Assembly (NCBI GenBank): GCA_022709695.1
Contig: JAKLII010000001.1
Span: 24,881 to 88,880 of the forward strand
Source of the DNA: Bacteroidota bacterium
Lineage (GTDB): Bacteria > Bacteroidota > Bacteroidia > Bacteroidales > SKPS01
Length of the DNA: 64,000 nucleotides
Direction: 5' to 3'
Part shown: positions 36,062-63,020 of the stretch, piece by piece
How positions within the stretch are numbered: the stretch's first letter is position 1
How the letters are laid out: every line of letters begins with the position of its first letter
Position numbers and translations under genes: made by a program
The notes under the pieces: generated by a model
Databases searched by the model: none
The model's input: the letters and a program-made list of their open reading frames with translations, nothing else
What the model was told of the DNA's origin: nothing

Positions 36062-37312
36062 TCAGTTTTTCAGCAACCATTTCCAAAGGGGAATTACCTG
36101 TATAACTGATTCTTTCTCCCTGATGATCTCTTCCGAATCGAAGGTAATGATCATGAGGGATTTTACGGAGTGCAGTGCAGCGGCTTTCAGCAGGGCTGAA
36201 ATTTCCCGCTTGCGCGTTTCTGCTGCAGCAAGGCTGTAGCATACCTGCACCAGTAATTCCCCTGGAACCAGAAAATCCACCTCGAAGCCATTTCTCATAT
36301 AAAAGACATTTTGACCATAAAGCTTCCGCAAATGATTGAAAACCAATGTTTCAATCTGAACGGACTCCGGTTCAGCAAGAAATAATGACAGTAATCCGTT
36401 GTCTCTGAAGTAGTATTTTTTCTTTGATTCCCGGCTGCTGATCTTCGCATTGAAATTTGGGATGGAGTTTATCAGAAAAGAATCCTCCAGGTAGTTCATG
36501 TATTCTATCACTGTGGCGGTCCCTATTTGTATTCCTGTAGATGCAATGATATTCCGGATACGGTTAAAGGCCACTTCATCCATGGTGCTTTCTGCAAGCT
36601 TTTTTATGAGCAGGCGCAAGGCAAAAGGATTCCTGATCTGGTACCGGGCAATGATATCCCCCAGGAACACTTTCTGAAAGAGATTGCTCAGGTACTCCTT
36701 TTTATCTGTAAACCTGATCAGTTCCGGAAAACCACCGGTTGAAAAATAGGTACCGAACAAACGGATCACCTCAAACCTTGAAGGAGAGAACTCAAGATGG
36801 TCATCTGGCTGATAACCGTGAAACCACAAAAACTCCCTGAAGGACAGGGTTTCAATCTCCCTGACCAGGAACCTGCCCCCAAGGGTTGAGGCCATCTCTT
36901 TGCTGAGCATGGCAGAATTGCTTCCTGTGATGTAGGTTTGATACCCGGTGTCGGCCATTCGCCTGGCAAATTTCTGCCAGCCCGCAACGACCTGAATTTC
37001 ATCCAGAAAAAGTATCGGCTTATGGCTGAACAGTTCCTGGTAGCTGGACAGCAGGGCATCGAACCCGGTAACATCCAATCCGATGAGCCTTTCATCCTCG
37101 AAATTTACATACAGGATGGATTCCGGGGGCAATCCGTTTTTTACCAGCGACTGCAGCACACCGATGATAAAATAGGTTTTTCCGGCGCGTCGCTGACCGG
37201 TGAAGATGTAGTTTGCCCGGGGTTCGATCGTGTAATCCCTGGGCAGTACTTCAAGGGCAGAAATCCGCTGCTGGTTTTCAAGGATGATTTTTTTTAACAG
37301 GTTGCTTTCCAT
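36062..37312 (-). CDS. AAA+ ATPase of the COG1373 / AAA_14 + DUF4143 type
   Basis: Walker A is GQRRAGKTY and Walker B is ILFLDEIQ, with a C-terminal DUF4143-like region. The track start at 37345 is a GTG, so ATG 37312 (MESNLLKK) is preferred. Confidence 0.8.
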   Translation of the reverse strand: MESNLLKKIILENQQRISALEVLPRDYTIEPRANYIFTGQRRAGKTYFIIGVLQSLVKNGLPPESILYVNFEDERLIGLDVTGFDALLSSYQELFSHKPILFLDEIQVVAGWQKFARRMADTGYQTYITGSNSAMLSKEMASTLGGRFLVREIETLSFREFLWFHGYQPDDHLEFSPSRFEVIRLFGTYFSTGGFPELIRFTDKKEYLSNLFQKVFLGDIIARYQIRNPFALRLLIKKLAESTMDEVAFNRIRNIIASTGIQIGTATVIEYMNYLEDSFLINSIPNFNAKISSRESKKKYYFRDNGLLSLFLAEPESVQIETLVFNHLRKLYGQNVFYMRNGFEVDFLVPGELLVQVCYSLAAAETRKREISALLKAAALHSVKSLMIITFDSEEIIREKESVIQVIPLWKWLLKN

Positions 37313-37332
37313 ATTTTGTTCTATATAGAGAA

Positions 37333-37364
37333 CAAAGATATGCACAAATTATTCGATATACAAA
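37333..37364 (-). promoter_or_regulatory. Candidate Bacteroidota promoter of the AAA ATPase gene (TTTG-N20-TATCTTTG)
   Basis: On the minus strand, TTTG (37364-37361) is followed after 20 nt by TATCTTTG (37340-37333), 21 nt upstream of ATG 37312. The spacing fits the TTTG-N19-21-TAnnTTTG consensus. Confidence 0.5.
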
Positions 37365-37661: not shown

Positions 37662-40601
37662 ATGCTCTTCGCCCACTCATACTACAGCCTCCGCTACGGC
37701 ACGTTGTCGCCGGAGCAGCTGGTACACCAGGCCCGGGCGCTGGGGCATGAGGTGCTGGTGCTTGCCGACATCAACAACAGCAGTGGGTTTCCGGAGTTTG
37801 TGAAGGAGTGCATGGAGGCGGGCATCACCCCTGTGGCCGGCATCGAATTCCGCCGGAAGGGGCGTTATCTCTGGACCGGCCTCGCCCGCAACGGCGATGG
37901 CATGCAGGAGCTCAACGAATTTCTGAGCCGGCACAATATTGAAGACCTTCCCCTTCCCGACCGGGCGCCCGCCTTTTCTGAGACGTACGTGGTGTACCCG
38001 ATGCAGGGGTTTGGCACGGCAGGGTTGCGAGACAACGAATACATCGGCGTTACACCGCAGGAGCTGCGGAAAAATCCGATGGCGCTGCAGGGCAGGATGT
38101 CAGAGCGCTACCTGCTGCGTGCGCCGGTGTCGTTCGGCACGCCGCAGCAGTACGAGGTGCACCGCAACCTGCGGGCCGTGGACATGAACACCCTCATCTC
38201 CAGGCTCACGCCATCCGACACCGCGTCGCCGGAGGACCTGCTGGTGCCGCCCGATGCCGTACGCAGCCTGTCGGCAGGGGCGCCCTGGCTCCTCAGCAAC
38301 ACCCTGAAGCTGCTGTCGGACTGCCACCTCAGCCTCGACTTCGGCACCATCAAAAACCGGCAGACCTTCACCGGCAACCGCTACGACGACAAGCTGCTGC
38401 TGGAGAAGCTGGCGATGGACGGACTGAAACACCGCTACGGCGCCCGCAACCGCACCGCACGGCAGCGGGTGGTGCATGAGCTGGAGATCATCGACCGCCT
38501 GGGCTTTGCATCGTACTTCCTTATCACCTGGGATATCGTGCGGTATTCGATGTCGCGGGGGTTCTACCACGTGGGCAGGGGCAGCGGCGCCAACAGCGTG
38601 GTGGCCTACTGCCTGATGATCACCAACGTGGATCCCATCGAGCTGGACCTCTACTTCGAACGGTTCCTCAACCCGCGCCGCTCCACCCCGCCCGACTTCG
38701 ACATCGACTATTCGTGGAAGGAGCGCGACGAGGTGCAGGACTACATCTTCAAACGCTACGGGCACCGTCACACCGCCCTGCTGGGTGCCACCTCCACGTT
38801 TAAGGACAAATCGATCTACCGGGAGCTGGGCAAGGTGTACGGGCTGCCCAAAGGGGAGATTGACGCCCTGGTGGAGCGCCCCGCCGACCCGGCAAACCAT
38901 AATGCCATTACGCTGAAGATCATCCGGCTGGCGGAACATATCGCCGACTTCCCCAACATCCGCAGCATCCACGCAGGAGGCATTATTGTATCGGAGGAGC
39001 CCATTACCCGTTACACAGCCCTGGACATGCCACCCAAGGGGTTTCAGACCACACAGTGGGATATGTATGTGGCTGAGGAGCTGGGATTTGAGAAGTTCGA
39101 CATCCTGAGTCAGCGCGGCATCGGCCACATCCGCGATGCCGCCCTCATCGTGAAGCAGAACCGGGGCGAGGCGGTGGATGTGTACGACATCCCCCGGTTC
39201 AAGAGCGACCCTGCCGTGCAGGCACAATTGAAACAGGGAGAGTGCAACGGCTGCTTCTACATCGAGAGCCCGGCCATGCGGGGGCTGCTGAAGAAGTTGC
39301 GCTGCAGCGATTACCTCACCCTGGTGGCCGCCAGCTCCATCATCAGGCCCGGTGTGGCAAAGTCGGGGATGATGAAGGAATACATCCGCAGGTTTCATAA
39401 CCCAAAGGGATTCAGCTACATACACCCCGTGATGGAGGAGCAGCTGAAGGAGACCTATGGCGTGATGGTATATCAGGAGGATGTGCTGAAGATCTGCCAC
39501 CACTTCGCCGGACTTGACCTGGGTGACGCCGACGTGCTGCGCAGGGCCATGAGCGGCAAGGGGCGCGGGAAGAAGGAATTCCGGCTGATTGTGGAGAAGT
39601 TCTTCGACAACTGCCGGCGGTTCGGCTATCCCAAGGCCACTACGCAGGAGGTGTGGCGTCAGATCGAATCGTTTGCCGGGTATTCGTTCTCCAAGGCGCA
39701 TTCGGCCTCCTATGCGGTGGAGAGTTTTCAGAGCCTGTGGCTCAAGGTGCATTACCCGCTGGAGTTCATGGTGGCGGTGATCAACAATTTCGGCGGTTTT
39801 TACCGCACATGGGTCTATTTCAACGAGGCGCGGCGATGGGGAGCCACGCTGGCGCTCCCCTGTGTGAACCTCAGCGGATATCTCACCACCATTTCGGGCA
39901 CCACCATCTATGCCGGCTTCATCCACATCGCAGGGTTGGAGGAGAAACTGGCAAAGCGGCTGGTGCAGGAGCGTGAGGAGCATGGCGATTATCTTTCGCT
40001 GGAGGATTTCGTGCAACGGGTGACGCCAACCCCCGAACAGCTCACCCTGCTGATCCGTGTGGGAGCCTTCCGGTTCACCGGAAAGGGAAAAGCGCCGCTG
40101 TTGTGGGAGAGCCGTATGCTCATCAGCCACCGGCAGCCGGAACCAGCCACTGCCCGGCTGTTTCCGCTTACCACCCGCCCCTTCACGCTGCCCGCGCTGG
40201 TGCACGACCCGCTGGAGGATGCCTGGGATGAGATGGAGCTATTGGGGTTCCCCATCTCTGTGTCGTGGTTCGATATGCTCGAAACCCGCTATCGAGGCGA
40301 TATTGCCGCCCACGGGCTGGCCGGCAGGGTGGGGCAGGAGGTACGGATGCTGGGAAAGCTCGTTACCATCAAATACGTATGGACCGTCCGTAAAGAGATC
40401 ATGCACTTCGGTACGTTTATCGATGTGCACGGCGAATTCTTCGATACGGTGCATTTTCCGCCCTCATTGAAGAACAACCCTTTCCGGGGCGAGGGAATTT
40501 ACCTGCTGCGCGGCAGAGTGGTGGAGGAATTCGGATTTCCGTCGGTGGAAATTTCACACATGGCCAAAATGCCGTTGAAACCCGACCCGCGGGGGAAATG
40601 A
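37662..40601 (+). CDS. DnaE-family DNA polymerase III alpha-like protein, short form (DnaE2/ImuC-like), orphan
   Basis: 979 aa. It has an N-terminal PHP domain (MLFAHSYYSLRYGTLSPEQLV...VLADINNSSGF), a pol III alpha core (GRGSGANSVVAYCL, FERFLNPRRSTPPDFDIDY, AGYSFSKAHSASYA), an HhH region and a C-terminal OB fold. No imuA/imuB-like genes are adjacent. Confidence 0.85.
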   Translation: MLFAHSYYSLRYGTLSPEQLVHQARALGHEVLVLADINNSSGFPEFVKECMEAGITPVAGIEFRRKGRYLWTGLARNGDGMQELNEFLSRHNIEDLPLPDRAPAFSETYVVYPMQGFGTAGLRDNEYIGVTPQELRKNPMALQGRMSERYLLRAPVSFGTPQQYEVHRNLRAVDMNTLISRLTPSDTASPEDLLVPPDAVRSLSAGAPWLLSNTLKLLSDCHLSLDFGTIKNRQTFTGNRYDDKLLLEKLAMDGLKHRYGARNRTARQRVVHELEIIDRLGFASYFLITWDIVRYSMSRGFYHVGRGSGANSVVAYCLMITNVDPIELDLYFERFLNPRRSTPPDFDIDYSWKERDEVQDYIFKRYGHRHTALLGATSTFKDKSIYRELGKVYGLPKGEIDALVERPADPANHNAITLKIIRLAEHIADFPNIRSIHAGGIIVSEEPITRYTALDMPPKGFQTTQWDMYVAEELGFEKFDILSQRGIGHIRDAALIVKQNRGEAVDVYDIPRFKSDPAVQAQLKQGECNGCFYIESPAMRGLLKKLRCSDYLTLVAASSIIRPGVAKSGMMKEYIRRFHNPKGFSYIHPVMEEQLKETYGVMVYQEDVLKICHHFAGLDLGDADVLRRAMSGKGRGKKEFRLIVEKFFDNCRRFGYPKATTQEVWRQIESFAGYSFSKAHSASYAVESFQSLWLKVHYPLEFMVAVINNFGGFYRTWVYFNEARRWGATLALPCVNLSGYLTTISGTTIYAGFIHIAGLEEKLAKRLVQEREEHGDYLSLEDFVQRVTPTPEQLTLLIRVGAFRFTGKGKAPLLWESRMLISHRQPEPATARLFPLTTRPFTLPALVHDPLEDAWDEMELLGFPISVSWFDMLETRYRGDIAAHGLAGRVGQEVRMLGKLVTIKYVWTVRKEIMHFGTFIDVHGEFFDTVHFPPSLKNNPFRGEGIYLLRGRVVEEFGFPSVEISHMAKMPLKPDPRGK

Positions 40602-51545: not shown

Positions 51546-53078
51546 ATGAGCCACACCCCAAAAAGCTGGCATATCCTTGCCGGCGCTGTAATCCTGACCA
51601 TCCTTTTTCATAAACAGCCTCCCGGGCTGAACCTGTGGATTGCTGAATTTCTGATTTTCGGGTGGATGTTTCTGAACCGGCAGATTCCGGTTCGAAAGCC
51701 CCTTGTACCGTTAACCCTCGCAGGAGTTTTTTTTACATTGCTGGCAACAGTACTGGTGCATTCAGCCTTCTCAGGATGGATGCATGCCTTCAGCCTTCTG
51801 GTATTGGCTGGTTTGTTATCGGCACCTGATCTCAGATCACTGGCCAGTGCACTGGGAACAGGTCTTGTGAACATCGTTATGGCCCAGGTAACATTTCTGA
51901 GAGGAATCAGGCACTTTCGGGTAGGGAAAAAGCCGGTGGGTTCCTACCTGTGGAAAAGCAGGATATTCCTTATCCCTCTCATAATCATTATCATATTTAT
52001 ATCCATTTACAGAAATTCCAGTCCGGTTTTCGACGACCTGATGGAACAATCCCTGGGATGGTTAGGGGAGCGGATAGCCGATCTTTTTGAGCATTTCAAT
52101 TTTGCATTGCTGGGAACCTTTATCCTTTGCCTGGCGATTGCAGTGCTGATGATGGTGCGAAACCCCATACCGTTTATTTCCGGTGCCGACCAGAGTGCTC
52201 CGGATGCAGTGCTTCGCAAACGGGTCCGCAGTTTCAGAAAAACCCTCGGGATGGGCCTGAAAAACGAATACCGGGCGGCCCTTTTCCTGCTGGTGGTGCT
52301 GAACCTGCTGATTCTCATACTGAATATTACCGATATTCACTGGGTATGGTTTAATTTCGAATGGGAAGGGCAGTATCTGAAACAGTTCGTACACGAAGGC
52401 ACCTGGCTGCTGATCTTTTCCATCCTTATTTCCATCACCATCGTCCTGTGGTTTTTTCGGGGGAACCTCAATTTTTATGCTTCCAACAAAACCCTCAGGA
52501 TACTCAGCTACATCTGGCTACTCCAGAATGTGATCCTCACAGTGTCGGTAAGTATCCGTAACTTTTACTATATCAGCTACTTCTCTCTGGCCTATAAGCG
52601 TATTGGAGTCATTATATTTCTGATCCTTACCCTGATAGGTCTTATCACCGTGCTCTATAAAGTGATGCATAAAAGATCGGGGTTCTGGCTGGTAAGAACC
52701 AATGCAGTGGCCTGGTTTGTAGTACTCATAACCTCATCTGCCGTTCCCTGGGACGTATATATTGCCCGCTACAATTTTGCCCATGCCGGGGAATCATTTG
52801 TCCATCTCAATTTTCTCTCAGGACTCTCCGATAAAGCATTGCCCTACCTTGATGTTCCCCTTGAGAAGCTGCAGGCTATCGATAAAGCACAGGAGGGGAA
52901 ATTCCCCTTCGGAAGGGAGCGGCGATACATGGAACCTGTCAGGTACCGTGAGATTATAGACCTGCGCAAAGCAAACTTCATAGACCGTTACGAGAGTGAG
53001 GGATGGCTCTCGTGGAACCTGCCGGAGCATCTGGCGTACAAGGCATTGAAGAGACCTCAGATTGATTTGTTGAGGTGA
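51546..53078 (+). CDS. Polytopic membrane protein (DUF4173/DUF4153-like)
   Basis: 510 aa with about 10 hydrophobic helices and a soluble C-terminal ~110 aa. The family assignment is from memory of the N-terminal pattern and is not verified. Confidence 0.6.
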   Translation: MSHTPKSWHILAGAVILTILFHKQPPGLNLWIAEFLIFGWMFLNRQIPVRKPLVPLTLAGVFFTLLATVLVHSAFSGWMHAFSLLVLAGLLSAPDLRSLASALGTGLVNIVMAQVTFLRGIRHFRVGKKPVGSYLWKSRIFLIPLIIIIIFISIYRNSSPVFDDLMEQSLGWLGERIADLFEHFNFALLGTFILCLAIAVLMMVRNPIPFISGADQSAPDAVLRKRVRSFRKTLGMGLKNEYRAALFLLVVLNLLILILNITDIHWVWFNFEWEGQYLKQFVHEGTWLLIFSILISITIVLWFFRGNLNFYASNKTLRILSYIWLLQNVILTVSVSIRNFYYISYFSLAYKRIGVIIFLILTLIGLITVLYKVMHKRSGFWLVRTNAVAWFVVLITSSAVPWDVYIARYNFAHAGESFVHLNFLSGLSDKALPYLDVPLEKLQAIDKAQEGKFPFGRERRYMEPVRYREIIDLRKANFIDRYESEGWLSWNLPEHLAYKALKRPQIDLLR

Positions 53079-53195: not shown

Positions 53196-54263
53196 ATGAA
53201 ACAGATCCTCTTTTCCTTGTTATTCGTTTTTAGTATCTTATCAGCAGCTCATGCACAGGATGAACCCTTTACCAAAGAGACCCTGCGTGAGTATTATCCG
53301 ATTCTTACCGCCATTACGGATGCAGATATGCCGGCTCAGGATTGCCTGTTCGGTTTTTACCAGAAATTCCGGCGGAGTGAGATCACATCTGATCAGGAGG
53401 TGGAACAGATTCTCAGATACCGTGATTCCCTTGCCACGATCCTGACCCCCCATGTGCGGAAATGGATCGCCGAAAATTATGATGAAGAGTATGAAAACTA
53501 TTTCAATATCAGGGGGGAACTGAACCAGATTATGATTGAGCCCATGCTGCATACTGATACGCTCTATGCCTTGTTTTCAATGACCAATGATTATGTGCTG
53601 GAGACCCGAGCCACTGCAGACTACTGGTTGTATATCCGGTATTGCGATGCACGGCAGTATACCGGATTTGCCCAACAGCATGGTTTGAACCTGGATTTTC
53701 TGCATAGTTATTACGAAATTATCGATATCTATCTGGAAATGAAGCAATCATTTCCAAAGAGTACCTGGCTGCCAAAGATGCGCAAAGATTTTGAAAGTGC
53801 CCTGGTTTTCGGGCTGGACCTGCATGTACTGGCACTCAGCGAACAATCGTATGTGCTGAGTACAAAATCCGGAAAGGATACCGATGTGGGTAAAGTCATG
53901 CTTGAAGAGCTGTATGGTTATGCGGGTGCTTATACCCGGTATGCACCATTGATTTCCAGACTTCTGGAAGATATCTCAATTATGGAGCAGGATGGAGGGC
54001 AGGAGGTTAAAAGCCTGTTTATCATTTCAATAGGTAAGTCCCCTGTAAAAGGTGAGGCTGAAAAAGCCCGGATCAAATACCTTGAGGAGCAGAAAGTTAT
54101 TCCACATATCATCGCAATTACAGCAAGTAAAACCACCATGTACCATAATGTGTACAGGTTTTACAGCAATGAGGCTGTCGCAACGGAAACCCTCAAGAAC
54201 GTTAAAAAAGCGATACCAGCTGCAGTGATGGTAAAAACCGGACCGAACTTCAGGTTTGAATAA
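53196..54263 (+). CDS. Secreted hypothetical protein; C-terminal ~80 aa possibly SPOR-like
   Basis: 355 aa with signal peptide ...SILSAAHA|QDE and no family recognised. The C-terminus (SLFIISIGKSPVKGEAEKARIKYLEE...MYHNVYRFYSNEAVATETLKNVKK) has a beta-alpha-beta-beta-like pattern. Confidence 0.55.
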   Translation: MKQILFSLLFVFSILSAAHAQDEPFTKETLREYYPILTAITDADMPAQDCLFGFYQKFRRSEITSDQEVEQILRYRDSLATILTPHVRKWIAENYDEEYENYFNIRGELNQIMIEPMLHTDTLYALFSMTNDYVLETRATADYWLYIRYCDARQYTGFAQQHGLNLDFLHSYYEIIDIYLEMKQSFPKSTWLPKMRKDFESALVFGLDLHVLALSEQSYVLSTKSGKDTDVGKVMLEELYGYAGAYTRYAPLISRLLEDISIMEQDGGQEVKSLFIISIGKSPVKGEAEKARIKYLEEQKVIPHIIAITASKTTMYHNVYRFYSNEAVATETLKNVKKAIPAAVMVKTGPNFRFE

Positions 54264-54330: not shown

Positions 54331-56850
54331 ATGAAATCAATAAAGCTATTTTCCCCATGGATATGCCTGATGTGTGTTGTAATCTTTTCAGGCTGTTCCC
54401 GTGAAAAAGAAAAATATTTCACCTCCCTTGATACAAACGCCTGGTTCCTGTATCACGGGAGCAATCCGGTAAATGCCGGAAAGGCCGGAGAGCGGAATTG
54501 TTACAGGTTTCTGTATGATGCAGAGGGCAGGGTTAAGGAAATTACCTATCTTAAAGCCGGCCTTGCAGCCATCAATCCGGAAACGGATTTCCACAGGGCA
54601 GTGTATACGTATACCGAAGGTTTCATCGATGTAGCTTTCTATGATCATCTGGGTAACCTTACCAAATCGGAAGATGGAGCAGCCAAACTGCGATACCGCC
54701 TCGACGCGGACGGGCATTTAAAAGCGCTCTATTATTATGGTGTCCAGGGAAGAATGACCCGCAATAAAACGGGGGTGTTTCAGTATGCATTCACCACCGA
54801 CAAAAAGGGGAACGTGGTTGCTGCGGTTTCTAAGGACCCTGATGGAAACAGAATGCCTGGTGAATCAGGGGTTTGGGAAACCCGTTCAACCTATTCACGG
54901 GAAGGGTATCTGACGAAGGTGCAGTTTATCGGCCCTGACGGCGAACCCATGACCAATCGTACCTCCGGTGTTGCTGAGATCAGGTATACCTATGATTCAA
55001 AGGGTATCAGAACCGAAGAGCGGTATTTCGACCTGAATGGGAAAAAAGCTGTTGAAAGCGGAACCGGGATACATGCCTTACGCTACGATCTGGATGGTGA
55101 CGGACAGCCTGTTCGGGAAACGGTGATGGATACTGAAGGCAAGCCTTTTAACAGACTGGATGAAAAGTGGGCTATTCATGAATTTGTGCGCAACAAAAGG
55201 GGGAATGTCGTTGAAGAAAAATTTCTGGGTTCTGATGGGAGTATAATTGAGTTACCGGAGTCAGGGATTAGCAGTTTGAAACTAAAGTATGATAGGCATA
55301 ATCAGATAGTTGAATTATCCTATCTGGATTCACTGGGAAAACTTAAAGGATTCAGGGGGAAAGGTTATGCAAAAATTGAAAATCAGTATGATGCACAGGG
55401 CTTGCTGATCAGGCAGAGGTATTTCGGTGACGATGGCAAGCTGAGGGAGAGGATCGACAACAGGATTGCCTCTGCGGAATTCACCTACGATGAAAAGGGT
55501 AACAAAACCACTGCACGGTACTATAACCTGGATGGTAAGCCGAAAGAGTCAGCTGACAAAAGAGTGACCGGGGAGGATTGCCGGTATGACGTATGGGGCA
55601 ACCTTGTCAGCCGCACCTGGACAGGAACCAACGGAGGGGCAAAAGTGGCAAAAGACTATGGCTATGCAACTGTCAGAATCGACTACGATTCAAGTGGCCA
55701 TATCGCTCAGGAGCAATATTTCGATGAATCCGGAAACCCGGTTAACCTGCCGGGCAAGGGCATTTCGAAGGTGAAGAAAAAATACAACCGGCTCCAGCAA
55801 GTGACAGAGATTTCATACTATGATCCATTGGGTAATCCGGCAATGCATCTCGAAAAAGGGTATGCTGCCATCAGATACACCTATTCTGTTCATAATAAAG
55901 TAGATATGGAATGGTATCTGGATGCCGCGGGTCAGCCGGTGACCTCGAATGACGGGGTTGCAGCAATTAAATACGGATACAATGTTTACGGTGATTTAGC
56001 CGAAAAGAGCTTTTACGATGTCTCCCGCCAGCCTGTGGAGCCATCCAGCAACGGAGGGATCCATAAGTACAGATTCTCCTATGATGCGTATGGCCATCAG
56101 ACCGAAATAGCTTATTTCAACCGGAATGATCAGCGGATTCAGCCTGCTTCACGTGATGGAATGGCACGCATCAACTATTCCTATGATTTATATGGACGCA
56201 TTATTGGCGAGGCCTACTTCGATACTGCGGGCAATGCCTGCCTATCGTCAAAAACCGGAATAGCAGGATTGTTCAACGAATATGACCATGATGGTAACCT
56301 AATAAAGATTAGTAGCTTTGGATTGGATGGCAGACCTCAGAATGACATTATTGCCGGTATAGCAACCCAGATCAGAAAGTATAAGAACGGACGAAAAATT
56401 GAGGCGAGATTCTTTGATAAGGATGGTAAACCGGCTCCGAAGCTCAATGACCGGTCTGCGGCCAGGATCGTATGGAGCTATAGTGCAAAAGGGGATGTAT
56501 TTAAAGAGACCCTGTATGATGCTGAAGGAAAGATGTGGGCTGATCCGGAGGATGGGGCTGCCGGGTATGAAGAAATCACTGACCGGTATGGCAATGTATT
56601 GGAAATGAGGTGGTATGGCCCTGATGGAAAACTGTTGCAGGTCAATAGCAGCGATTATGCAATTCTGCGACAGACCTATGACCTTTGGAATAATCTGATT
56701 ACGGAGGAATACCTGGATGCGGATGGTAAACTCATGCCTTACAGTTCAAAAGTACAATACGACTACAATGAGTACAACGAAAAGATCAGGACAACAGTCT
56801 TCGATGCAAATGGCAGGGTGGTATCCCGTACCGAAGGTGCCTCGTCGTAG
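54331..56850 (+). CDS. Lipoprotein made of ~24 copies of a 33-residue YD-like repeat
   Basis: Lipobox VIFSGC. The repeat consensus is roughly a-x-h-x-Y-x-Y-D-x-x-G-N-h-x-E-x-x-Y-F-D-x-x-G-K-P-x5-G. Examples are AEIRYTYDSKGIRTEERYFDLNGKK and ARINYSYDLYGRIIGEAYFDTAGN. Confidence 0.8.
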   Translation: MKSIKLFSPWICLMCVVIFSGCSREKEKYFTSLDTNAWFLYHGSNPVNAGKAGERNCYRFLYDAEGRVKEITYLKAGLAAINPETDFHRAVYTYTEGFIDVAFYDHLGNLTKSEDGAAKLRYRLDADGHLKALYYYGVQGRMTRNKTGVFQYAFTTDKKGNVVAAVSKDPDGNRMPGESGVWETRSTYSREGYLTKVQFIGPDGEPMTNRTSGVAEIRYTYDSKGIRTEERYFDLNGKKAVESGTGIHALRYDLDGDGQPVRETVMDTEGKPFNRLDEKWAIHEFVRNKRGNVVEEKFLGSDGSIIELPESGISSLKLKYDRHNQIVELSYLDSLGKLKGFRGKGYAKIENQYDAQGLLIRQRYFGDDGKLRERIDNRIASAEFTYDEKGNKTTARYYNLDGKPKESADKRVTGEDCRYDVWGNLVSRTWTGTNGGAKVAKDYGYATVRIDYDSSGHIAQEQYFDESGNPVNLPGKGISKVKKKYNRLQQVTEISYYDPLGNPAMHLEKGYAAIRYTYSVHNKVDMEWYLDAAGQPVTSNDGVAAIKYGYNVYGDLAEKSFYDVSRQPVEPSSNGGIHKYRFSYDAYGHQTEIAYFNRNDQRIQPASRDGMARINYSYDLYGRIIGEAYFDTAGNACLSSKTGIAGLFNEYDHDGNLIKISSFGLDGRPQNDIIAGIATQIRKYKNGRKIEARFFDKDGKPAPKLNDRSAARIVWSYSAKGDVFKETLYDAEGKMWADPEDGAAGYEEITDRYGNVLEMRWYGPDGKLLQVNSSDYAILRQTYDLWNNLITEEYLDADGKLMPYSSKVQYDYNEYNEKIRTTVFDANGRVVSRTEGASS

Positions 56851-56924
56851 TTGTATCCCCGCTTAACCCTTTGAAATACTGCCATCGAAAACTCATTCAA
56901 TGAATGTTTACAGAAATGCACGAT

Positions 56925-58238
56925 ATGAAGACACGATTTTTGTCACTGCTGTTTTGGATTTCGTTAATCTTATGGGCAGGTTGCGGAAGAAATAATCCTA
57001 TCGCCTTCAGGCATATGGAGACCAATGGATATGGGGATTTTACCGGGCGTTATCCAGTGGAATCGGCCGACACCGGGAAAGTGGCGTGTTACACGGTAAC
57101 CTATGACGAAGAAGGGAGAATTTCAGGCTGGAGATACCTGAAAGGTGGGATGTTGGCTATTGATCCCATTTTCAATGTGGCCTCTGCATCCTGTGAAAGA
57201 GACAAGGAAAGGGTAAAAACCAGCTATTTCGATCTCTATGGAACCCTGTGCGCAAATTTCGAAGGGGTATTTATGACCGAAAGGGTGCTGAGTCCGGAAG
57301 GTTTTCCGGTAAGTGAAACCAATCTTGACCGGGATGGAAAAGCCATGGCCGACAGCAGAGGGGTCACTACATACCGCTATACCACAGATCCGGAAGGGCG
57401 CATTATCACCTCCCGGTTTTATGGCTCTGATGGTGCACCTGTGGCCAATACATACGGAGTGGAAGAACACAGGTACAGTTACACCAAAGAGGGGTGGTAC
57501 AGTGATGTGCAGTATTTTTCGAAAGAGGGAAAACCGGTGCTGCACAACGAACAGAAATATGCCCGCATTCATTGGGAATATGATAAAAAGGGGAATAAAA
57601 CGGTTGAATCCTACTATGATGAAATGGATTCCCTGAGCGAGAAAACAGCAACGGGAGTTGCCCGGATTCAACTGGACTATGACCAGAATGGGTATCGTTA
57701 TGCGCTCAGGTGCCAGGGGAAAGATGGCCTGCCCAAAAGGAACACCAGCTGGCAAACTGCATCTATCATCCAGGAATATGATTCGGCCGGCAATATCCTG
57801 CTTGCCAGGTACCTTGGGACAGACGACCTGCCTGAGGTGATCAGGGAACCTTCATGGATGGAGGTTGCGTTTGTGTATGATGCATTTGGGAATCAGGTTG
57901 AACGCAGGCATCTGGATGCCAGTGGAAATCTGGTGATGGTCAGCGATTTTGGGTATGCCATGTTGCGGCAACGCTTCGATGACCACCGCAACATTGTTGA
58001 AAAACAGTATTTTGGTGCTGACGGAGTTCTGATCGATTTCCTGGGTTACGGTTATGCGATTCACCGAATGCAATACGACAGCAAGGGGCGACTGACAGAA
58101 GAGAGCCTTTTTGGTACCGATGGCAAACCTGTCAACCAGGTGCCTTCCGGGGCTTCGGTTTACAGGTACACCTACGATGAGGAGGGCAGAAGGACAGGTA
58201 CAACCCGGTTGGATGCAAACGGAGCGGTGGTGGAATAG
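56925..58238 (+). CDS. Paralogous lipoprotein with ~12 copies of the same 33-residue YD-like repeat
   Basis: Start trimmed to MKTRFLSLLFWISLILWAGC (lipobox). Example repeats are VTTYRYTTDPEGRIITSRFYGSDGAP and SVYRYTYDEEGRRTGTTRLDANGA. Confidence 0.8.
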   Translation: MKTRFLSLLFWISLILWAGCGRNNPIAFRHMETNGYGDFTGRYPVESADTGKVACYTVTYDEEGRISGWRYLKGGMLAIDPIFNVASASCERDKERVKTSYFDLYGTLCANFEGVFMTERVLSPEGFPVSETNLDRDGKAMADSRGVTTYRYTTDPEGRIITSRFYGSDGAPVANTYGVEEHRYSYTKEGWYSDVQYFSKEGKPVLHNEQKYARIHWEYDKKGNKTVESYYDEMDSLSEKTATGVARIQLDYDQNGYRYALRCQGKDGLPKRNTSWQTASIIQEYDSAGNILLARYLGTDDLPEVIREPSWMEVAFVYDAFGNQVERRHLDASGNLVMVSDFGYAMLRQRFDDHRNIVEKQYFGADGVLIDFLGYGYAIHRMQYDSKGRLTEESLFGTDGKPVNQVPSGASVYRYTYDEEGRRTGTTRLDANGAVVE

Positions 58239-59392: not shown

Positions 59393-59432
59393 AACACAGA
59401 TGAAACTGATGGGACTGGTTTCCGATGATTAT

Positions 59433-59633
59433 TTCTCGCAGAAAACGCGGAAACTACGCAGATATCCGCAGAAGTTATTTATTTTTTCAGCGTCTTTCCG
59501 CGAAATTTCAGCGAATTTCAGCGAGAGAAAAAATTTCACGCAGAAACCTCGCGGAAATCCGCAGAAACATTTTTTCAGCGCCACTTGTGCTGAGCTTGTC
59601 GAAGCATCAGTGAAATTTCCTGCGAGAAACTTC
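59433..59633 (+). repeat. Modular intergenic repeat, locus R1 (A-C-A-B-C', partly degenerate)
   Basis: Contains TTCTCGCAGAAAACGCGGAAACTACGCAGATATCCGCAGAAG. It also has ...GCGAAATTTCAGCGAATTTCAGCGAGAGAAAAAAT and CTCGCGGAAATCCGCAGAAAC. CCACTTGTGCTGAGCTTGTCGAAGCA lies at 59581-59606. Confidence 0.9.
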
Positions 59634-59666: not shown

Positions 59667-62357
59667 GTGAAAATCATAAAGATCAGCGTTATCAGCGTTC
59701 TATTGGTCTTCAACATTGGTGCAAAAGCCCAACCTGCTGAGCAGCGCCCCGACCCGGAATGGCTCAGAACCTACGTGTCCGGCGATTTCTGCTGGGCCTA
59801 CGACGTACAGGTGGATCAGGCCGGCAACAGTTACTCCACCGGCTACTTCCAGAGAAACCTGAAACTGGCCCAGGGAAAATACATTGAACCCAAAACCACA
59901 TGCTATGCCCGTTGCCCCGACACCTGGTTTCTGATGAAGCACGACCCCAACGGCAACCTGCTGTGGGTCCGTTACGCCGAAGGGAACTCCAGGCCAGCCC
60001 GCATCGCCATTGATCCCAACGGCTTTATCTGGGTAGCCGGTAATTTCTATGGCGGAAAAGTGGATTTTATCACCGCCGATGACAGAAAGCTTACCCTGAA
60101 TGGGACAGAGGGTTTAAACTCTTCTTTGTTCATTGCCCATTACAACTCTAATGGGGAGCTGCTGCATCTGATCATGCCCAGGATTGATTTCGAGGTTGAG
60201 TTATTTGATTTCAGGGGAGATATGGAGGGTAATTTTTATCTGGCCGGAGCAAAACTCTTCAGAACCTACGATAAAACCTATGAAGTAAAGCGCACCTTTG
60301 CCCTGCTGTCGTACGACCAGGAGTTCCATCTCCGGTGGAGCCTCCTGGGTGATACGGTTGGACAATCCCATATCAATGCAGTATGTGCTGATAATCAGGG
60401 GAATGTGATAGCTACCGGAGGTTTTCATGACGACATCAGGATTGGAAAGAGCCAGTTTACCACGAGGGATTACAATGCCATGACCTTTGCTTTCAAAGCC
60501 AATCGCAAGGGTGATGTGGAATGGGCGATCGACTCACTGGGGATCTATACCAACGGAGCCGGGGCATCGATGGCGCTGAACAGTAAAGGGGATGCGTTTA
60601 TTGTAACTACCTCATCCTACAGCCGAACATGCCTGAACCGCATCAGCAGCAGGGGTAAACCCGAATGGTCGGTACCCATCAATGGCAAGGCATCGGTGTA
60701 CCACGAAAGGTTGCTGCTGGACAAAGAGGAGCGGATCTGGCTGGCAGGAGAGGGGTATGGTTTCGATGTTGTTTCGAAGAATGAAACTATTACAACGTTG
60801 AGCTCAAAGGGTGGGACTGATCCGTTTATGCTGCACTTTTCGGCCGATGGCAACCTGTTACAGGCCCTCAGCGGGGGTGGGGCAGGCACCGATTACCTGA
60901 AGGCGATTGCGCTGAAAGACGACAAATTGCTGGCTTTCGGGTGGTTTGGCGGAGATATGGTATTCGGGGACACAGTTGTAAAAACCCGCGATGGCTATAT
61001 CTTCTGGATCGGACAGTTCAGCACGTTGCCCGGGGCTGCAAATCCATTTCCCAGGCAGCCTGTGGAGCCTGGGGCGAACCTTTCGGATACCACATGGAAC
61101 AGCGACCTCTGCACCTGCACTTACCACCGGGAGAAGCGGACCGTGTTTTACCCGTCCCTGGACGCCCTTCTGGAATACGACGATTTCAACGAGTATTCGG
61201 GATGGAGCCAGGATCCACTTCTTCAGAATTATAAGAATCTCTATTACAGAGATTTTCAGTTTTCAACCAGTTCGCACGGAGGATTTTATTCCCTGGTGCT
61301 GGCCTCTTTCAGAAACCCGGTAGTATTTCATCATCCGTCAAATACCTTCGGAATTGATTTTACCCCATGTGTCAACAACCTGAAAATCTACGAGTTGCCG
61401 ATAACACTCAGCTATGAATTTCCGTATGCCCGGTATTTTGAAGATCTTGAAAATGGGTTCGACAGGTCGGCGGCAGCGTGGTTCGATTTCTGGCAGGAGG
61501 TGAATCAGATCGGTGTGGAGGAATTGGCAGAATCAATGGATCTTGCCCCATGGCTTGCGGCAGTGGCGGAGAACGATCTTGAGAAGCTCGGAACGGCCAT
61601 GGCGGATGATGGGTATATTCTTGATCTGGAGGGACTTGAAACATACACCGTGCCTGAGGTGAATGCCCGCATGGAAACCGGGGAAATTGCGCTGCTGATC
61701 TCTTCTGACATCCTGCGGCAGCACGATCCGGTTACCGGTGCGCTGCTGCTGAATGAGGAGGGAAAACCTGCCCGGGCGAGGATCCTGGCGAAGGTCGAAG
61801 AGCTGACCTATTCCACAGAGAGCTCACTGCAGGCAACCTTCGGTGAGATCTGTATGCCCTGGGCTGAGATAGGCACCTCAGGAATGCAGATCCAGTTCAA
61901 CACCGCATCGATTGTCAGCACACCGGAGCAACTGTATTACGATCCGTATTCGATTGATGGTCCGGGGTTTCCTGAAAGAAGCCAGAATGGTGCATACGAT
62001 GAGGAGGAGCTGCCGGAAGCTGCACAGAATACACCGAATGTGCTGGATAATTTCACCGGAATTTCTGTGGACGATGCAGTGATACATTGGCCCTTTGCCG
62101 GAAAAATGCTGGAAGGCTGGGGTTCAGGATTTCTGATCAACAATCAGATGTTATGCGGCCTGATCATGCTTCCGCTTTCTGACAACCAGCCGTCGGATTC
62201 AGACAGCAGTGTCGTGTTGCTGGCCGGTGAAGAGGAGGTTTATACTTCACTTCAGGATCTGCAGAACTGGCTGAAGATAAATGGTTTTGATGTTGCCAGG
62301 TTTCATCCGCTGGAAAGTGAACTTGCCATCTATATCGAAATGAAAAGCAAATACTAA
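59667..62357 (+). CDS. Secreted hypothetical protein: N-terminal SBBP-like beta-propeller repeats, acidic C-terminal half of unknown fold
   Basis: 896 aa with a GTG start and signal peptide MKIIKISVISVLLVFNIGAKA|QP. Recurrent blocks are DQAGNSYSTGYF, DPNGFIWVAGNFYGG, DMEGNFYLAG and DNQGNVIATGGF. There is no T9SS tail. Confidence 0.7.
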   Translation: MKIIKISVISVLLVFNIGAKAQPAEQRPDPEWLRTYVSGDFCWAYDVQVDQAGNSYSTGYFQRNLKLAQGKYIEPKTTCYARCPDTWFLMKHDPNGNLLWVRYAEGNSRPARIAIDPNGFIWVAGNFYGGKVDFITADDRKLTLNGTEGLNSSLFIAHYNSNGELLHLIMPRIDFEVELFDFRGDMEGNFYLAGAKLFRTYDKTYEVKRTFALLSYDQEFHLRWSLLGDTVGQSHINAVCADNQGNVIATGGFHDDIRIGKSQFTTRDYNAMTFAFKANRKGDVEWAIDSLGIYTNGAGASMALNSKGDAFIVTTSSYSRTCLNRISSRGKPEWSVPINGKASVYHERLLLDKEERIWLAGEGYGFDVVSKNETITTLSSKGGTDPFMLHFSADGNLLQALSGGGAGTDYLKAIALKDDKLLAFGWFGGDMVFGDTVVKTRDGYIFWIGQFSTLPGAANPFPRQPVEPGANLSDTTWNSDLCTCTYHREKRTVFYPSLDALLEYDDFNEYSGWSQDPLLQNYKNLYYRDFQFSTSSHGGFYSLVLASFRNPVVFHHPSNTFGIDFTPCVNNLKIYELPITLSYEFPYARYFEDLENGFDRSAAAWFDFWQEVNQIGVEELAESMDLAPWLAAVAENDLEKLGTAMADDGYILDLEGLETYTVPEVNARMETGEIALLISSDILRQHDPVTGALLLNEEGKPARARILAKVEELTYSTESSLQATFGEICMPWAEIGTSGMQIQFNTASIVSTPEQLYYDPYSIDGPGFPERSQNGAYDEEELPEAAQNTPNVLDNFTGISVDDAVIHWPFAGKMLEGWGSGFLINNQMLCGLIMLPLSDNQPSDSDSSVVLLAGEEEVYTSLQDLQNWLKINGFDVARFHPLESELAIYIEMKSKY

Positions 62358-62362
62358 AGACC

Positions 62363-62507
62363 TTTTTTCTCGCAGAAATCCGCAGACAGCACGCGGAAAT
62401 CCGCAGAACCTTATTTCAGCGTCTATCTGCGAAATTTCAGCGAATTTCAGCGAGAGAAAAAATATTCTCGCAGAAATCCGCAGTAAGTTCGCGGAAATCC
62501 GCAGAGA
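62363..62507 (+). repeat. Modular intergenic repeat, locus R2 (A-A-C-A-A, no B module)
   Basis: TTTTTTCTCGCAGAAATCCGCAGACAGCACGCGGAAATCCGCAGAACCTTATTTCAGCGTCTATCTGCGAAATTTCAGCGAATTTCAGCGAGAGAAAAAATATTCTCGCAGAAATCCGCAGTAAGTTCGCGGAAATCCGCAGAG. Confidence 0.92.
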
Positions 62508-62513
62508 TCATTC

Positions 62514-62891
62514 TCATAAACCATTAACAATTCGCTGAATCGAGTGTAGTATATTGGCTGTGTTGAAGTTAATCAGTAATCCAAGCTTTTTATCAGAAAG
62601 CTTCAGGTACGTTAAAAGTTGCTTGCTGTGCACATCTGTGAGCTGTTCAACTGATTTGATTTCAACGATCACTTTGTTTTCTACAAGCAGGTCTATCCGA
62701 TATCCAACATCAAGTTTAACATCTTCATAAACAAGCGGCAGAGGCACCTGCGAATTAACAATCAAGCCATTTTTACTGATAAGGTGCTTTAAAACAGATT
62801 CATAACTCGATTCAAGTAATCCTGGCCCAAGTTCCTTATAGGTAGTATAAACTGCGCCACGGATGATGTACGAAATTTCATTTTCAGTCAT
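62514..62891 (-). CDS. GxxExxY-family protein (PD-(D/E)XK nuclease-like fold)
   Basis: 125 aa with the GLLESSYESVL signature and ...VIVEIKSV...QLLTYLKLSDKKLGLLINFN. It is a paralogue of 40673-41080. Confidence 0.85.
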   Translation of the reverse strand: MTENEISYIIRGAVYTTYKELGPGLLESSYESVLKHLISKNGLIVNSQVPLPLVYEDVKLDVGYRIDLLVENKVIVEIKSVEQLTDVHSKQLLTYLKLSDKKLGLLINFNTANILHSIQRIVNGL

Positions 62892-62965
62892 AAGTTTTTA
62901 TTGTATATATGATTGAGCTTTCAAAAAAGGAGACAGGTAAGGTACTTTTTAAAAATAATCATGAT

Positions 62966-63020
62966 TCTTTCTGCGAATTTCCGCGTAATTTCACCGAGTT
63001 TCTGCGAGAAAAAAAATCAC
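62966..63020 (+). repeat. Modular intergenic repeat, locus R3 (degenerate C module only), abutting the MBL start codon
   Basis: TCTTTCTGCGAATTTCCGCGTAATTTCACCGAGTTTCTGCGAGAAAAAAAATCACG aligns to the C module TCTGCGAAATTTCAGCGAATTTCAGCGAGAGAAAAAAT. It ends 1 nt before ATG 63022. Confidence 0.7.

Follow-up and report, generated by a model that had tools for sequence, protein, structure and literature searches.

Analysis of two neighbouring predicted lipoprotein genes of an uncultured Bacteroidales bacterium (ORF list) suggested, on balance, that their products, designated A and B, constitute an extracytoplasmic platform for multivalent binding or sensing, which is built of YD-derived hairpin units, is probably periplasmic, and is not a toxin cocoon. 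This explanation takes the unit to derive from the YD/RHS repeat, and A and B would represent, as lipoproteins that stand alone, a very large and unnamed family of extracytoplasmic repeat arrays. Since most arrays of this family are tied to TIR, kinase, or nSTAND1 domains, a binding or sensing platform appears to be the most likely role.

The genes lie in a window of 64,000 nt (the whole stretch of DNA analyzed) from a Bacteroidota bacterium (Bacteroidales; SKPS01; assembly GCA_022709695.1, contig JAKLII010000001.1, positions 24,881–88,880, forward strand). An earlier note on this DNA had described ORFs of 839 and 437 aa, and both exist as described according to the ORF list and the ortholog starts (Table 1). 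An alternative upstream ATG of B at 56904 would give a 444-aa protein, but the B orthologs (435 and 443 aa) begin at the equivalent of M8 (56925) and not at that ATG; therefore, the length of 437 aa was considered correct. Rfam gave no match anywhere in the window. Scans for sigma-70 promoters and terminators stayed at chance level, and sigma-70 models are not applicable to Bacteroidota.

Table 1. Features of the A/B locus, in positions of the window
Feature	Position	Strand	Evidence
DUF4153 (NCBI: DUF4173) multi-pass membrane protein	51546..53078	+	Pfam PF13687, E = 2.9e-36
355-aa secreted partner; family has a C-terminal SPOR-like domain (~residues 274–346, nt 54015–54233)	53196..54263	+	
Protein A, 839 aa: predicted lipoprotein, cap and 24 repeat units	54331..56850	+	ORF, unit HMM, AF2, orthologs
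A signal peptide and lipobox (..VIFSG-C22)	54331..54396	+	Sequence; Cys kept in orthologs
A membrane-proximal cap, residues 23–57, KYFTSLDTNAWFLYHGSNPV...CYRF	54397..54501	+	Motif class and model
A array, 24 units of 29–34 aa (mode 33)	54502..56847	+	Autocorrelation, unit HMM, AF2
Protein B, 437 aa: predicted lipoprotein, cap and 12 repeat units	56925..58238	+	ORF, unit HMM, AF2, orthologs
B signal peptide and lipobox (..ILWAG-C)	56925..56984	+	Sequence; Cys kept in orthologs
B membrane-proximal cap, IAFRHMETNGYGDFTGRYPV...ACY	56985..57089	+	Collinearity with A cap and model
B array, 12 units	57090..58235	+	Unit HMM, AF2

Repeat Unit and Relationship of A and B

Autocorrelation of both proteins (BLOSUM62) had its main peak at a lag of 33, followed by 66 and 99; smaller peaks were at 12 and 21. 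When iterated on A and B, a unit HMM identified exactly 24 units in A (residues 58–839) and exactly 12 in B (residues 63–444 of the 444-aa reading), in agreement with the approximately 24 and 12 copies of a 33-residue repeat counted previously. The computed consensus, IRyTYDxxGNxxEExYFxxDGKPxxxxxxGYAx, also matched the one proposed then. Across both proteins, the units measured 33 (20 units), 32 (nine units), or 34 residues (three units), with a few shorter; the YD motifs within a unit are spaced 21 + 12 aa, and the positions Y, D, G, P, and A are conserved while the remainder varies. The HMM was trained on A and B themselves, and support independent of this training comes from the autocorrelation and from the thousands of other proteins retrieved by the unit profile. 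Composition-shuffled versions of A and B produced at most one match, in five of 400 shuffles, and the six frames of the window contained no matches beyond A and B. No DNA-level tandem repeat was found in the two genes, indicating old units that have since diverged.

Orthologs of the pair are rare and were found at two metagenomic loci, both of which keep the protein lengths and unit positions. The A orthologs have 837 aa (50% identity) and 843 aa (39%), with the same unit positions as A, and those of B share 63% (435 aa) and 48% identity (443 aa). A genome-contig search with A returned no relative, and a metagenome search with the B alignment returned only distant members of the family; none was a further ortholog, and none had a SPOR or DUF4153 partner. 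B is best collinear with units 1–12 of A (score 367), followed by units 13–24 (292). This collinearity lends weak support to the earlier suggestion that the 2:1 ratio reflects duplication, but A and B share only approximately 26–28% identity and their split predates the three lineages. A recent duplication of B into A was rejected on the basis of this identity, the lack of a DNA repeat, and a weak unit-offset signal at 12.

Relationship to Known Repeats

Both proteins exceeded the curated cut-offs of RHS_repeat (PF05593; 31.3 and 31.7 bits versus 22) and TIGR01643 (48.4 and 44.3 bits versus 15.8), scores that are sums of many weak stretches with at most one individually significant stretch. 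The best TIGR01643 stretch (A 762–793) joins an FD..G motif to the next YD..G 21 aa later. Together with the YD shells that head the Foldseek results (see below), these scores bear out the earlier description of the unit as YD/RHS-like. The MORN and WG families, also put forward as candidates, fell away: MORN_2 (PF07661) scored 22.8 bits for A, below its cut-off of 29.6, and did not match B, and neither WG_beta_rep nor cell wall–binding repeats appeared among the Pfam matches of A and B at E ≤ 1.

Escherichia coli RhsA, used as a control, has a period of 21 aa and the core motif PVTNTDPLGL at residue 1238; it scored 34 bits with the unit HMM, compared with 300–600 bits for family members with a related unit profile. 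A regular-expression search for the Rhs core (P....DP.GL and DP.G[LWIV]) found neither form in A or B. According to Pfam and NCBIfam analysis, no toxin, plug, secretion adaptor, or other domain was detected, nor was a T9SS tail by Pfam, as had been noted before, and in both cases the C-terminus falls inside the last repeat unit or immediately behind it. Without the Rhs core motif, a toxin, or a plug, A and B are very unlikely to be an Rhs toxin-encapsulating cocoon. PADLOC gave no matches for A, B, the 355-aa protein, or the DUF4153 protein at E ≤ 0.1. The literature searched on YD/RHS repeats in combination with TIR, STAND, kinase, or lipoprotein contained no account of such a class of repeat, and the papers mentioning nSTAND1 do not describe the present array, which is consistent with the uncharacterised class envisaged earlier.

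Predicted Structure

AF2 predicted a regular beta-hairpin repeat structure in both A (pLDDT 89, pTM 0.80) and B (pLDDT 90, pTM 0.77), as the earlier note had anticipated, with strands of 6 and 7 residues and a connector of approximately 14 residues in each unit. Accordingly modelled, a unit would begin with a 6-residue strand that ends in Y-D, turn at D-x-x-G, and continue with a 7-residue strand that ends in Y-F, and each hairpin would be followed by a 14-residue loop (F-D-x-x-G-K-P ... G-Y-A) opened by the second motif. Neighbouring units would pack laterally to give a long antiparallel sheet, probably open and single-layered, in which one edge carries the tight YD turns and the opposite edge a ridge of loops. 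The term "compressed", once applied to this repeat, holds for the sequence, where YD motifs are 12 and 21 aa apart, but not for the structure, which has one hairpin per 33 aa compared with one per 21 aa in Rhs.

It is very unlikely that A, alone or with B, is a closed YD shell like those of Rhs, TcB-TcC, or teneurin that encloses cargo. The best PDB matches by Foldseek were indeed the Rhs, Tc, and teneurin shells (E values of 1e-14 to 1e-30, down to 1.8e-30), but they superposed with TM-scores of only 0.12–0.39 and rmsd of 13–31 Å. The 782-residue array of A is near the Rhs and teneurin shells in size, its pTM suggests a globally defined shape, and the unit number is strictly conserved among A/B orthologs; however, array length in the family as a whole varies continuously from 8 to 60 units, the period is 33 and not 21 aa, and the PxxxxDPxGL core, aspartyl-protease region, plug, and C-terminal toxin are all missing. 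A membrane-tethered N-terminal cap, with a PDZ domain often after the array, fits a ribbon better than a sealed capsule. Of the shell or solenoid proposed previously, the hairpin repeat and the resemblance in Foldseek thus stood, but support for the shell was poor. Engineered single-layer OspA sheets were also matched (E values of 1e-6 to 1e-9, TM-scores of 0.10–0.22), as were MORN proteins locally in the viral library (1e-9 to 1e-7, 0.13–0.34). A sequence search of A against PDB chains gave no match at E ≤ 1.

A Large Family of Membrane-Anchored Arrays

The unit profile retrieved 11,872, 3,743, and 1,318 cluster representatives at E ≤ 1e-3, 1e-10, and 1e-30, respectively. The family is thus neither small nor restricted to lipoproteins: its members number in the thousands, and in most of them the array forms the outward-facing part of a TIR, kinase, or STAND protein with a TM anchor. 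Among the best 150 representatives, TIR (41), Ser/Thr kinase (41), nSTAND1 (25), and PDZ (41) domains were present. In the sequences examined, the TIR, kinase, or STAND domain is N-terminal to a single TM helix and the array follows the helix, which places the array outside the cytoplasm; the helix directly precedes the conserved cap in the homologs examined, and PDZ is often last in those inspected. The continuous range of array lengths argues for an open-ended structure, and a structural quantum of 12 units (12, 24, 48) was rejected because of it. The family includes a conserved kinase of approximately 1,260 aa that is common in human-gut metagenomes. No consistent theme emerged from the neighbourhoods of other members examined, in which YkuD and SLT adjoin a kinase-fused member and YkuD is near P0005. 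A defence-island context for TIR-fused members was unsupported by the three loci examined.

In the favoured binding or sensing platform, A and B would be lipid-anchored outside the cytoplasm, their 24 or 12 hairpin units preceded by a short, conserved cap next to the membrane; in most family members, a single TM helix links the array to a TIR, Ser/Thr kinase, or nSTAND1 NTPase in the cytoplasm. A and B would bind or sense a putative extended ligand in the cell envelope, and in this clade a secreted, SPOR-like protein predicted to bind peptidoglycan may be their partner, probably in the periplasm. Binding, with an envelope or peptidoglycan component as the putative ligand, is the most likely function. 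It is possible, though tentative, that the array is a widespread, unrecognised, TLR-like pattern-recognition ectodomain of single-pass TIR, STAND, and kinase receptors; A and B could then serve as co-receptors or decoys, or present ligands, where signals arise from the envelope, for example through damage to peptidoglycan or contact with an invader.

That the array is mainly a rigid spacer or scaffold lacking ligand specificity of its own, which would hold a distal module such as PDZ at a fixed distance from the membrane in the fusions and organise envelope proteins in the case of A and B, seems unlikely. The PDZ domains in 41 of the best 150 proteins, C-terminal to the array where inspected, suit such a role, but the array is the C-terminal part of A, B, and most TIR-fused members, which lack a distal module. 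The unit number is fixed within orthologs and differs between architectures, as expected of a spacer, and the conserved Y, D, G, P, and A look like framework residues; however, variation around a fixed framework would be expected just as much of a binding surface that has diversified.

Anchoring, Location, and Gene Neighbourhood

The hydrophobic region ends in FSG-C in A and WAG-C in B, and the lipobox Cys is conserved across all six proteins, including the four orthologs (VILTGC in P0020 and TLYSC in L085 for A; MYSC in L001 and LQAGC in L085 for B). By the lipobox criterion, A and B are predicted bacterial lipoproteins, as they had been read initially. Residues 9–22 of A were modelled as a helix (signal peptide) and its cap as a hairpin (E26–35/E41–47), with the B cap at E33–40/E46–52 (AF2). 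The motif class of the A cap, YYxDYVxxWGxPxGIGxL...H....YRFxY, occurs directly after the TM helix in TIR, kinase, and STAND members, and the B cap is collinear with that of A and of P0001-type proteins.

The 355-aa protein has a signal peptide visible in its sequence and belongs to a family of six members. SPOR (PF05036) matches five of the six at residues ~270–346, with P0216 alone passing the cut-off (35 versus 21 bits) and four relatives just below it, of which P0212, P0213, and P0214 scored 17–21 bits over nearly the whole model (residues ~274–346); the window's own copy had no SPOR match at E ≤ 1. The family profile had no match in the PDB, and a metagenome search with its alignment found no relative. 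The gene is directly upstream of A in all three A/B loci, and the 355-A-B order is kept in three lineages with conserved lengths. A DUF4153 gene precedes the 355-aa gene in L083, L084, L085, and L087, and none was called next to it on the L001 contig. Two close relatives keep both genes without A and B, so that the partnership with A and B is not obligatory, and the DUF4153 protein is regarded as context rather than a strict part of the pair. Of the neighbours named in the earlier note, the DUF4173 protein (the NCBI name for Pfam DUF4153) and the secreted 355-aa protein, of a SPOR-like family, were thus recovered, but both persist in relatives without A and B. Genes of approximately 355 aa upstream of other array genes (L088, L090) were considered as SPOR-like partners and rejected, as they are not homologs; one of them encodes a lipoprotein made of the repeat.

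Another tandem pair of repeat lipoproteins (357 and 354 aa) is located directly downstream of SusC/SusD, with GH10 nearby. This pair points to a surface role instead of a periplasmic one.

Ligand binding is the probable role that Pfam gives for RHS repeats, and A and B might be surface-exposed glycan-binding lipoproteins for nutrient capture, like PUL proteins in the SusE/F position. The SusC/SusD-linked pair and a window rich in glycoside hydrolases (GH38 just upstream of DUF4153, amylases) with a SusC-like receptor agree with this, but adjacent SusC/SusD genes are absent from all three orthologous A/B loci, and most family members have their array fixed to the inner membrane through a TM helix. 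The conserved partner is moreover SPOR-like and therefore probably periplasmic. The Bacteroidota surface-export signal, K-(D/E)2 or Q-A-(D/E)2 just after the lipoprotein Cys (PMC5080379), occurs in none of the six proteins, although this rule comes from work on other Bacteroidota and might not apply to the present lineage. The residues from the Cys onward are CSREKEK, CSREKVK, and CSRKQPE in the A orthologs and CGRNNPI, CGMEKGT, and CQKKQAE in the B orthologs. Surface glycan capture is therefore considered improbable, and A and B are probably on the periplasmic side.

Significance and Comparison With Known Systems

To our knowledge, YD repeats have been described almost exclusively as wall material of shells, either those that carry toxins (Rhs, Tc toxins) or that of teneurin. 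A and B point to a distinct YD branch with a 32/33-residue unit and with no toxin, core motif, or shell-like superposition. It comprises thousands of proteins, most of which a single TM helix connects to TIR, STAND, or kinase, the same output domains on which bacterial immunity and signalling rely. Should the array be a sensor, these proteins would form a large class of envelope-facing receptors, including the gut-metagenome kinase of ~1,260 aa. The A/B pair is a small, soluble-domain starting point for work on structure and binding. Should the array be no more than a scaffold, the result is a useful annotation refinement, namely that array proteins should not be called Rhs toxins.

Rhs, Tc, and teneurin proteins have the Y-x-Y-D-x-x-G motif and the antiparallel beta-hairpin meander in common with A and B, and the canonical 21-aa spacing of Rhs is one of the two motif spacings here. 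However, the Rhs period is approximately 20–21 aa (21 in the RhsA control) compared with 33 aa (21 + 12), each 21 aa of Rhs forms one hairpin whereas A and B have one hairpin and a 14-residue loop per 33 aa, and Rhs/Tc proteins are secreted through T6SS or Tc whereas the A/B family is lipid- or TM-anchored outside the cytoplasm. MORN/YwqK-type repeats (PF02493, PF07661) are likewise short beta-hairpin repeats in a single-layer sheet, but the MORN_2 unit has 22 aa instead of 33 and a different motif. Engineered OspA variants form a similar extended single-layer antiparallel sheet by Foldseek, but have no sequence relationship to A and B and no repeat motif.

In TLRs (LRR) and PknB-type kinases (PASTA), as in the fused family members, a repeat array outside the cell is connected by one TM segment to a TIR or kinase inside. 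Their ectodomains are unrelated in fold and sequence to the A/B array, the TLR orientation is reversed relative to the fused members, whose cytoplasmic domain is N-terminal, and A and B, unlike these receptors, lack any cytoplasmic module. The logic of envelope sensing is comparable to that of PASTA-kinase ectodomains, which bind muropeptides (PMC3145798). The likeness to TLR and PASTA receptors may therefore indicate how the family works, rather than membership in either group.

Two adjacent lipoproteins built from a 33-residue repeat

Proteins A and B are encoded by neighboring ORFs on the same strand. B has two candidate starts, and its orthologs begin at the position matching the second ATG, which makes 437 aa the correct length. 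Both proteins are predicted to be lipid-anchored and extracytoplasmic: each opens with a hydrophobic signal peptide ending in cysteine (FSG-C22 in A and WAG-C in B), and the lipobox cysteine was kept in all four orthologs examined.

Autocorrelation of A and B (BLOSUM62) was strongest at lag 33, with lags 66 and 99 next and minor peaks at lags 12 and 21. When a unit HMM was iterated over both proteins, it settled on exactly 24 units for A and 12 for B, most of them 33 aa long and some 32 or 34 aa. Across all six reading frames of the window, the same profile had no match outside A and B, and it gave at most one match in shuffled A or B. The ORFs, the autocorrelation and the unit HMM thus confirmed in all particulars the earlier note's account of two adjacent lipoproteins with 24 and 12 repeat copies. 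No tandem repeat was found at the DNA level in either gene, which indicates that the units are ancient.

It had also been proposed that the 2:1 repeat count reflects duplication. A and B share 26–28% identity and align collinearly, starting with the signal peptide and cap. The best global alignment of B was with units 1–12 of A (score 367), ahead of units 13–24 (292) and of the other registers (154–278). This ranking fits an old doubling of a 12-unit module, though only weakly, and any duplication relating A to B would predate the split of the three lineages that carry them. Nor is the ratio general: in another tandem pair, with repeat lipoproteins of 357 and 354 aa (locus L088:4084-7065), it is approximately 1:1.

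Positions of the repeat lipoproteins and other features in the window
Feature	Position	Strand	Description
AAA_14/DUF4143 gene	36062-37345	-	ATPase, adjoins the DnaE-like gene
DnaE-like gene	37662-40601		979 aa; PHP, DNA_pol3_alpha, finger and HHH_6 domains
DUF4153 gene	51546-53078	+	Membrane protein (NCBI name DUF4173)
355-aa gene	53196-54263	+	Secreted SPOR-like protein
Protein A	54331-56850	+	ORF, 839 aa
Protein B	56904 or 56925 to 58238	+	ORF, 444 or 437 aa
Intergenic repeats	59432-59565; 62363-62505; 62965-63017		41-53 nt, direct and inverted copies
896-aa gene	59667-62357		Secreted protein
125-aa ORF	62514-62891	-	Bracketed by the intergenic repeats

Genomic context of A and B

The gene order is DUF4153, 355-aa protein, A, B and aminotransferase, all on the forward strand. 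In two related loci, L001 and L085, both A and B were retained with nearly identical unit positions. In L083/L084 and L087 they were absent, and an AAA_14/DUF4143 gene directly followed the 355-aa gene. These comparisons indicate that A and B form an accessory cassette of two genes whose internal layout is conserved. The 355-aa protein, which the cassette usually adjoins, does not depend on it.

Amino acid identity of the locus in relatives to the window
Locus	DUF4153	355-aa protein	A	B
L001	None called adjacent on contig	65%	50%, 837 aa	63%, 435 aa
L085	69%	35%	39%, 843 aa	48%, 443 aa
L083/L084	85%	74%	Absent	Absent
L087	87%	73%	Absent	Absent

A SPOR peptidoglycan-binding domain was matched at the C-terminus of five of six members of the 355-aa family, with only P0216 above the cut-off; the window's own copy gave no match. 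The DUF4153 and 355-aa proteins of the window have exact matches in an NCBI 'Bacteroidales bacterium' MAG (HRZ43091.1 and others). The exact A and B sequences were not found in a 15-billion-protein collection, although these flanking proteins were present in it. The window is Bacteroidota chromosomal DNA, with T9SS tails, a SusC-like receptor, LigA and DnaE; its LigA shares 78% identity with the copy in an uncultured Lentimicrobiaceae MAG.

Several other features of the window were recorded. The intergenic repeats are rich in TTTCxGCGAAATTTC-like motifs. They flank the 896-aa gene, and around the 125-aa ORF they form inverted arms that are 83% complementary and separated by 560 nt. The 896-aa protein showed only weak beta-propeller repeat matches (SBBP and Reg_prop) and a long C-terminal region without a match. 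The DnaE-like gene segment has a GC content of 0.606 vs approximately 0.49 for the window. Its product is short for a replicative DnaE, and the gene could therefore be a horizontally acquired DnaE2-like gene.

Size and architecture of the array family

Word-indexed searches returned a single clear A ortholog, P0020 (50% identity), with the remaining matches at or below 30% identity. The distant homologs share the repeat unit, with the family consensus v-r-x-e-Y-D-E-R-G-N-v-I-E-e-A-Y-F-D-a-D-G-K-P-T-l-n-k-d-G-Y-A-r and a spacing most commonly of 32 aa and next of 33 aa. An exhaustive search of 1.84 billion cluster representatives with a 36-unit profile found 11,872 proteins at E ≤ 1e-3 (a level that is borderline for a canonical Rhs protein), 3,743 at E ≤ 1e-10 and 1,318 at E ≤ 1e-30.

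Among the top 150 proteins, TIR (41), Ser/Thr kinase (41), nSTAND1 NTPase (25) and PDZ (41) domains were identified; the 40 proteins with none of these mostly had a signal peptide or transmembrane helix ahead of the array. In the fused proteins whose sequences were examined, an N-terminal cytoplasmic module is followed by one transmembrane helix, a cap with the conserved motif YYxDYVxxWGxPxGIGxL...H....YRFxY, and the array. This arrangement makes the array an extracytoplasmic module. A and B, whose caps are of the same motif class, are its lipoprotein form, within a very large family in which such ectodomain arrays are fused to TIR, kinase or STAND modules.

Public names of members are 'hypothetical protein', 'YD repeat-containing protein' or that of the cytoplasmic domain, and no description of the array was found in the literature searched. 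Precomputed lists assign two array proteins (P0024 and P0032) a newer Pfam entry, PF27244.1, which may be a recent family for the array or cap and bear on novelty. A conserved kinase-array protein of approximately 1,260 aa (start motif like MIGKE[IV]LNY...) occurs on many metagenome contigs (L099-L123, e.g., L116:7591-11379), several of which are labelled human gut. A sub-family of approximately 700 aa (P0001, P0002, P0005 and P0009) has a signal peptide, a cap, an array detected over about 10–12 units and, at the C-terminus, a conserved domain of roughly 200 aa with hydrophobic segments and no Pfam match; P0005 lies between CobW-like GTPase and GAF-SpoIIE phosphatase genes (L089).

No single genomic context recurred among the family-member loci examined. 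The L088 pair lies directly downstream of SusC/SusD; a 222-aa MORN-like protein is adjacent, with GH10 and Laminin_G_3 genes nearby. One kinase-fused member adjoins YkuD and SLT peptidoglycan enzymes. One TIR-fused member lies within a cluster of zinc-ribbon repeat-protein paralogs (L093:485-14661), comprising at least five DZR genes with Sel1, Ank and FGE-sulfatase partner domains and an LRR protein and kinase alongside, which looks like a paralogous sensor cluster. The other two TIR-fused loci examined showed no defence-island context.

Predicted structure and proposed role

AlphaFold2 models built with homolog alignments predicted a hairpin repeat with confidence for both A (pLDDT 89.0, pTM 0.80) and B (pLDDT 90.0, pTM 0.77). 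Each modelled unit consists of a 6-residue strand ending in Y-D, a D-x-x-G turn and a 7-residue strand ending in Y-F, followed by a connector of approximately 14 residues bearing isolated beta-bridges. A cap hairpin spans residues 26–47 in A and 33–52 in B.

The array would form an extended single-layer sheet whose surface would bind or sense an envelope ligand multivalently. A rival explanation is that it closes into a shell like those of Rhs proteins, which ranked among its first fold matches; array length in the family is continuous, from approximately 8 to 60 units with a mode of 21–24, and this fits an open-ended solenoid better. Because the family is systematically fused to TIR, STAND and kinase modules, a receptor role for it is plausible and testable, with the array as a passive spacer being the competing view.

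The Bacteroidota lipoprotein export signal, K-(D/E)2 or Q-A-(D/E)2 (PMC5080379), was present in none of six orthologs. Together with the SPOR-like partner, this suggests that A and B face the periplasm; the alternative is that they are surface glycan-binding proteins. Their ligand may be related to peptidoglycan, the most tentative step of the proposal.

Relation to YD/RHS repeats

The window units have the consensus I-R-y-T-Y-D-x-x-G-N-x-x-E-E-x-Y-F-x-x-D-G-K-P-x6-G-Y-A-x. The likeness to YD/RHS repeats proposed in the earlier note was borne out by Pfam RHS_repeat (31.3 and 31.7 bits for A and B; cut-off, 22) and TIGR01643 (48.4 and 44.3 bits; cut-off, 15.8), both passed only by summing weak stretches. 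The best TIGR01643 stretch (A 762–793) covers an FD..G motif plus the next YD..G. Inside a unit, 12 aa separate the two YD-like motifs, Y-D-x-x-G and F-D-x-x-G; from one unit to the next the separation is 21 aa, the canonical YD spacing. The suggestion of a compressed YD period therefore holds for motif spacing in the sequence, but the models place one hairpin in every 33 residues and no compressed hairpin pair.

As a control for YD repeats, E. coli K-12 RhsA showed a 21-aa period, the core motif PVTNTDPLGL and 33.9 bits with the unit HMM. In A and B, the P....DP.GL motif, toxin domains and T9SS tails were all absent, as had been noted; no sequence hallmark of an Rhs shell or toxin was seen. 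In Foldseek searches against the PDB, Rhs effectors, TcB-TcC and teneurins ranked first (E values, 2e-30 for A and 2e-14 for B), yet these matches superposed with TM-scores of only 0.12–0.39 and rmsd of 13–31 Å. Engineered single-layer OspA sheets were also matched, as were MORN and YwqK-type repeat proteins in a viral library, the latter with low TM-scores. On period and core motif, A and B fall outside the Rhs toxin/YD-shell family as strictly defined, the comparison with solved shells being equivocal. They represent a derived form of the YD hairpin repeat, widespread but, as far as this analysis shows, unnamed and unstudied.
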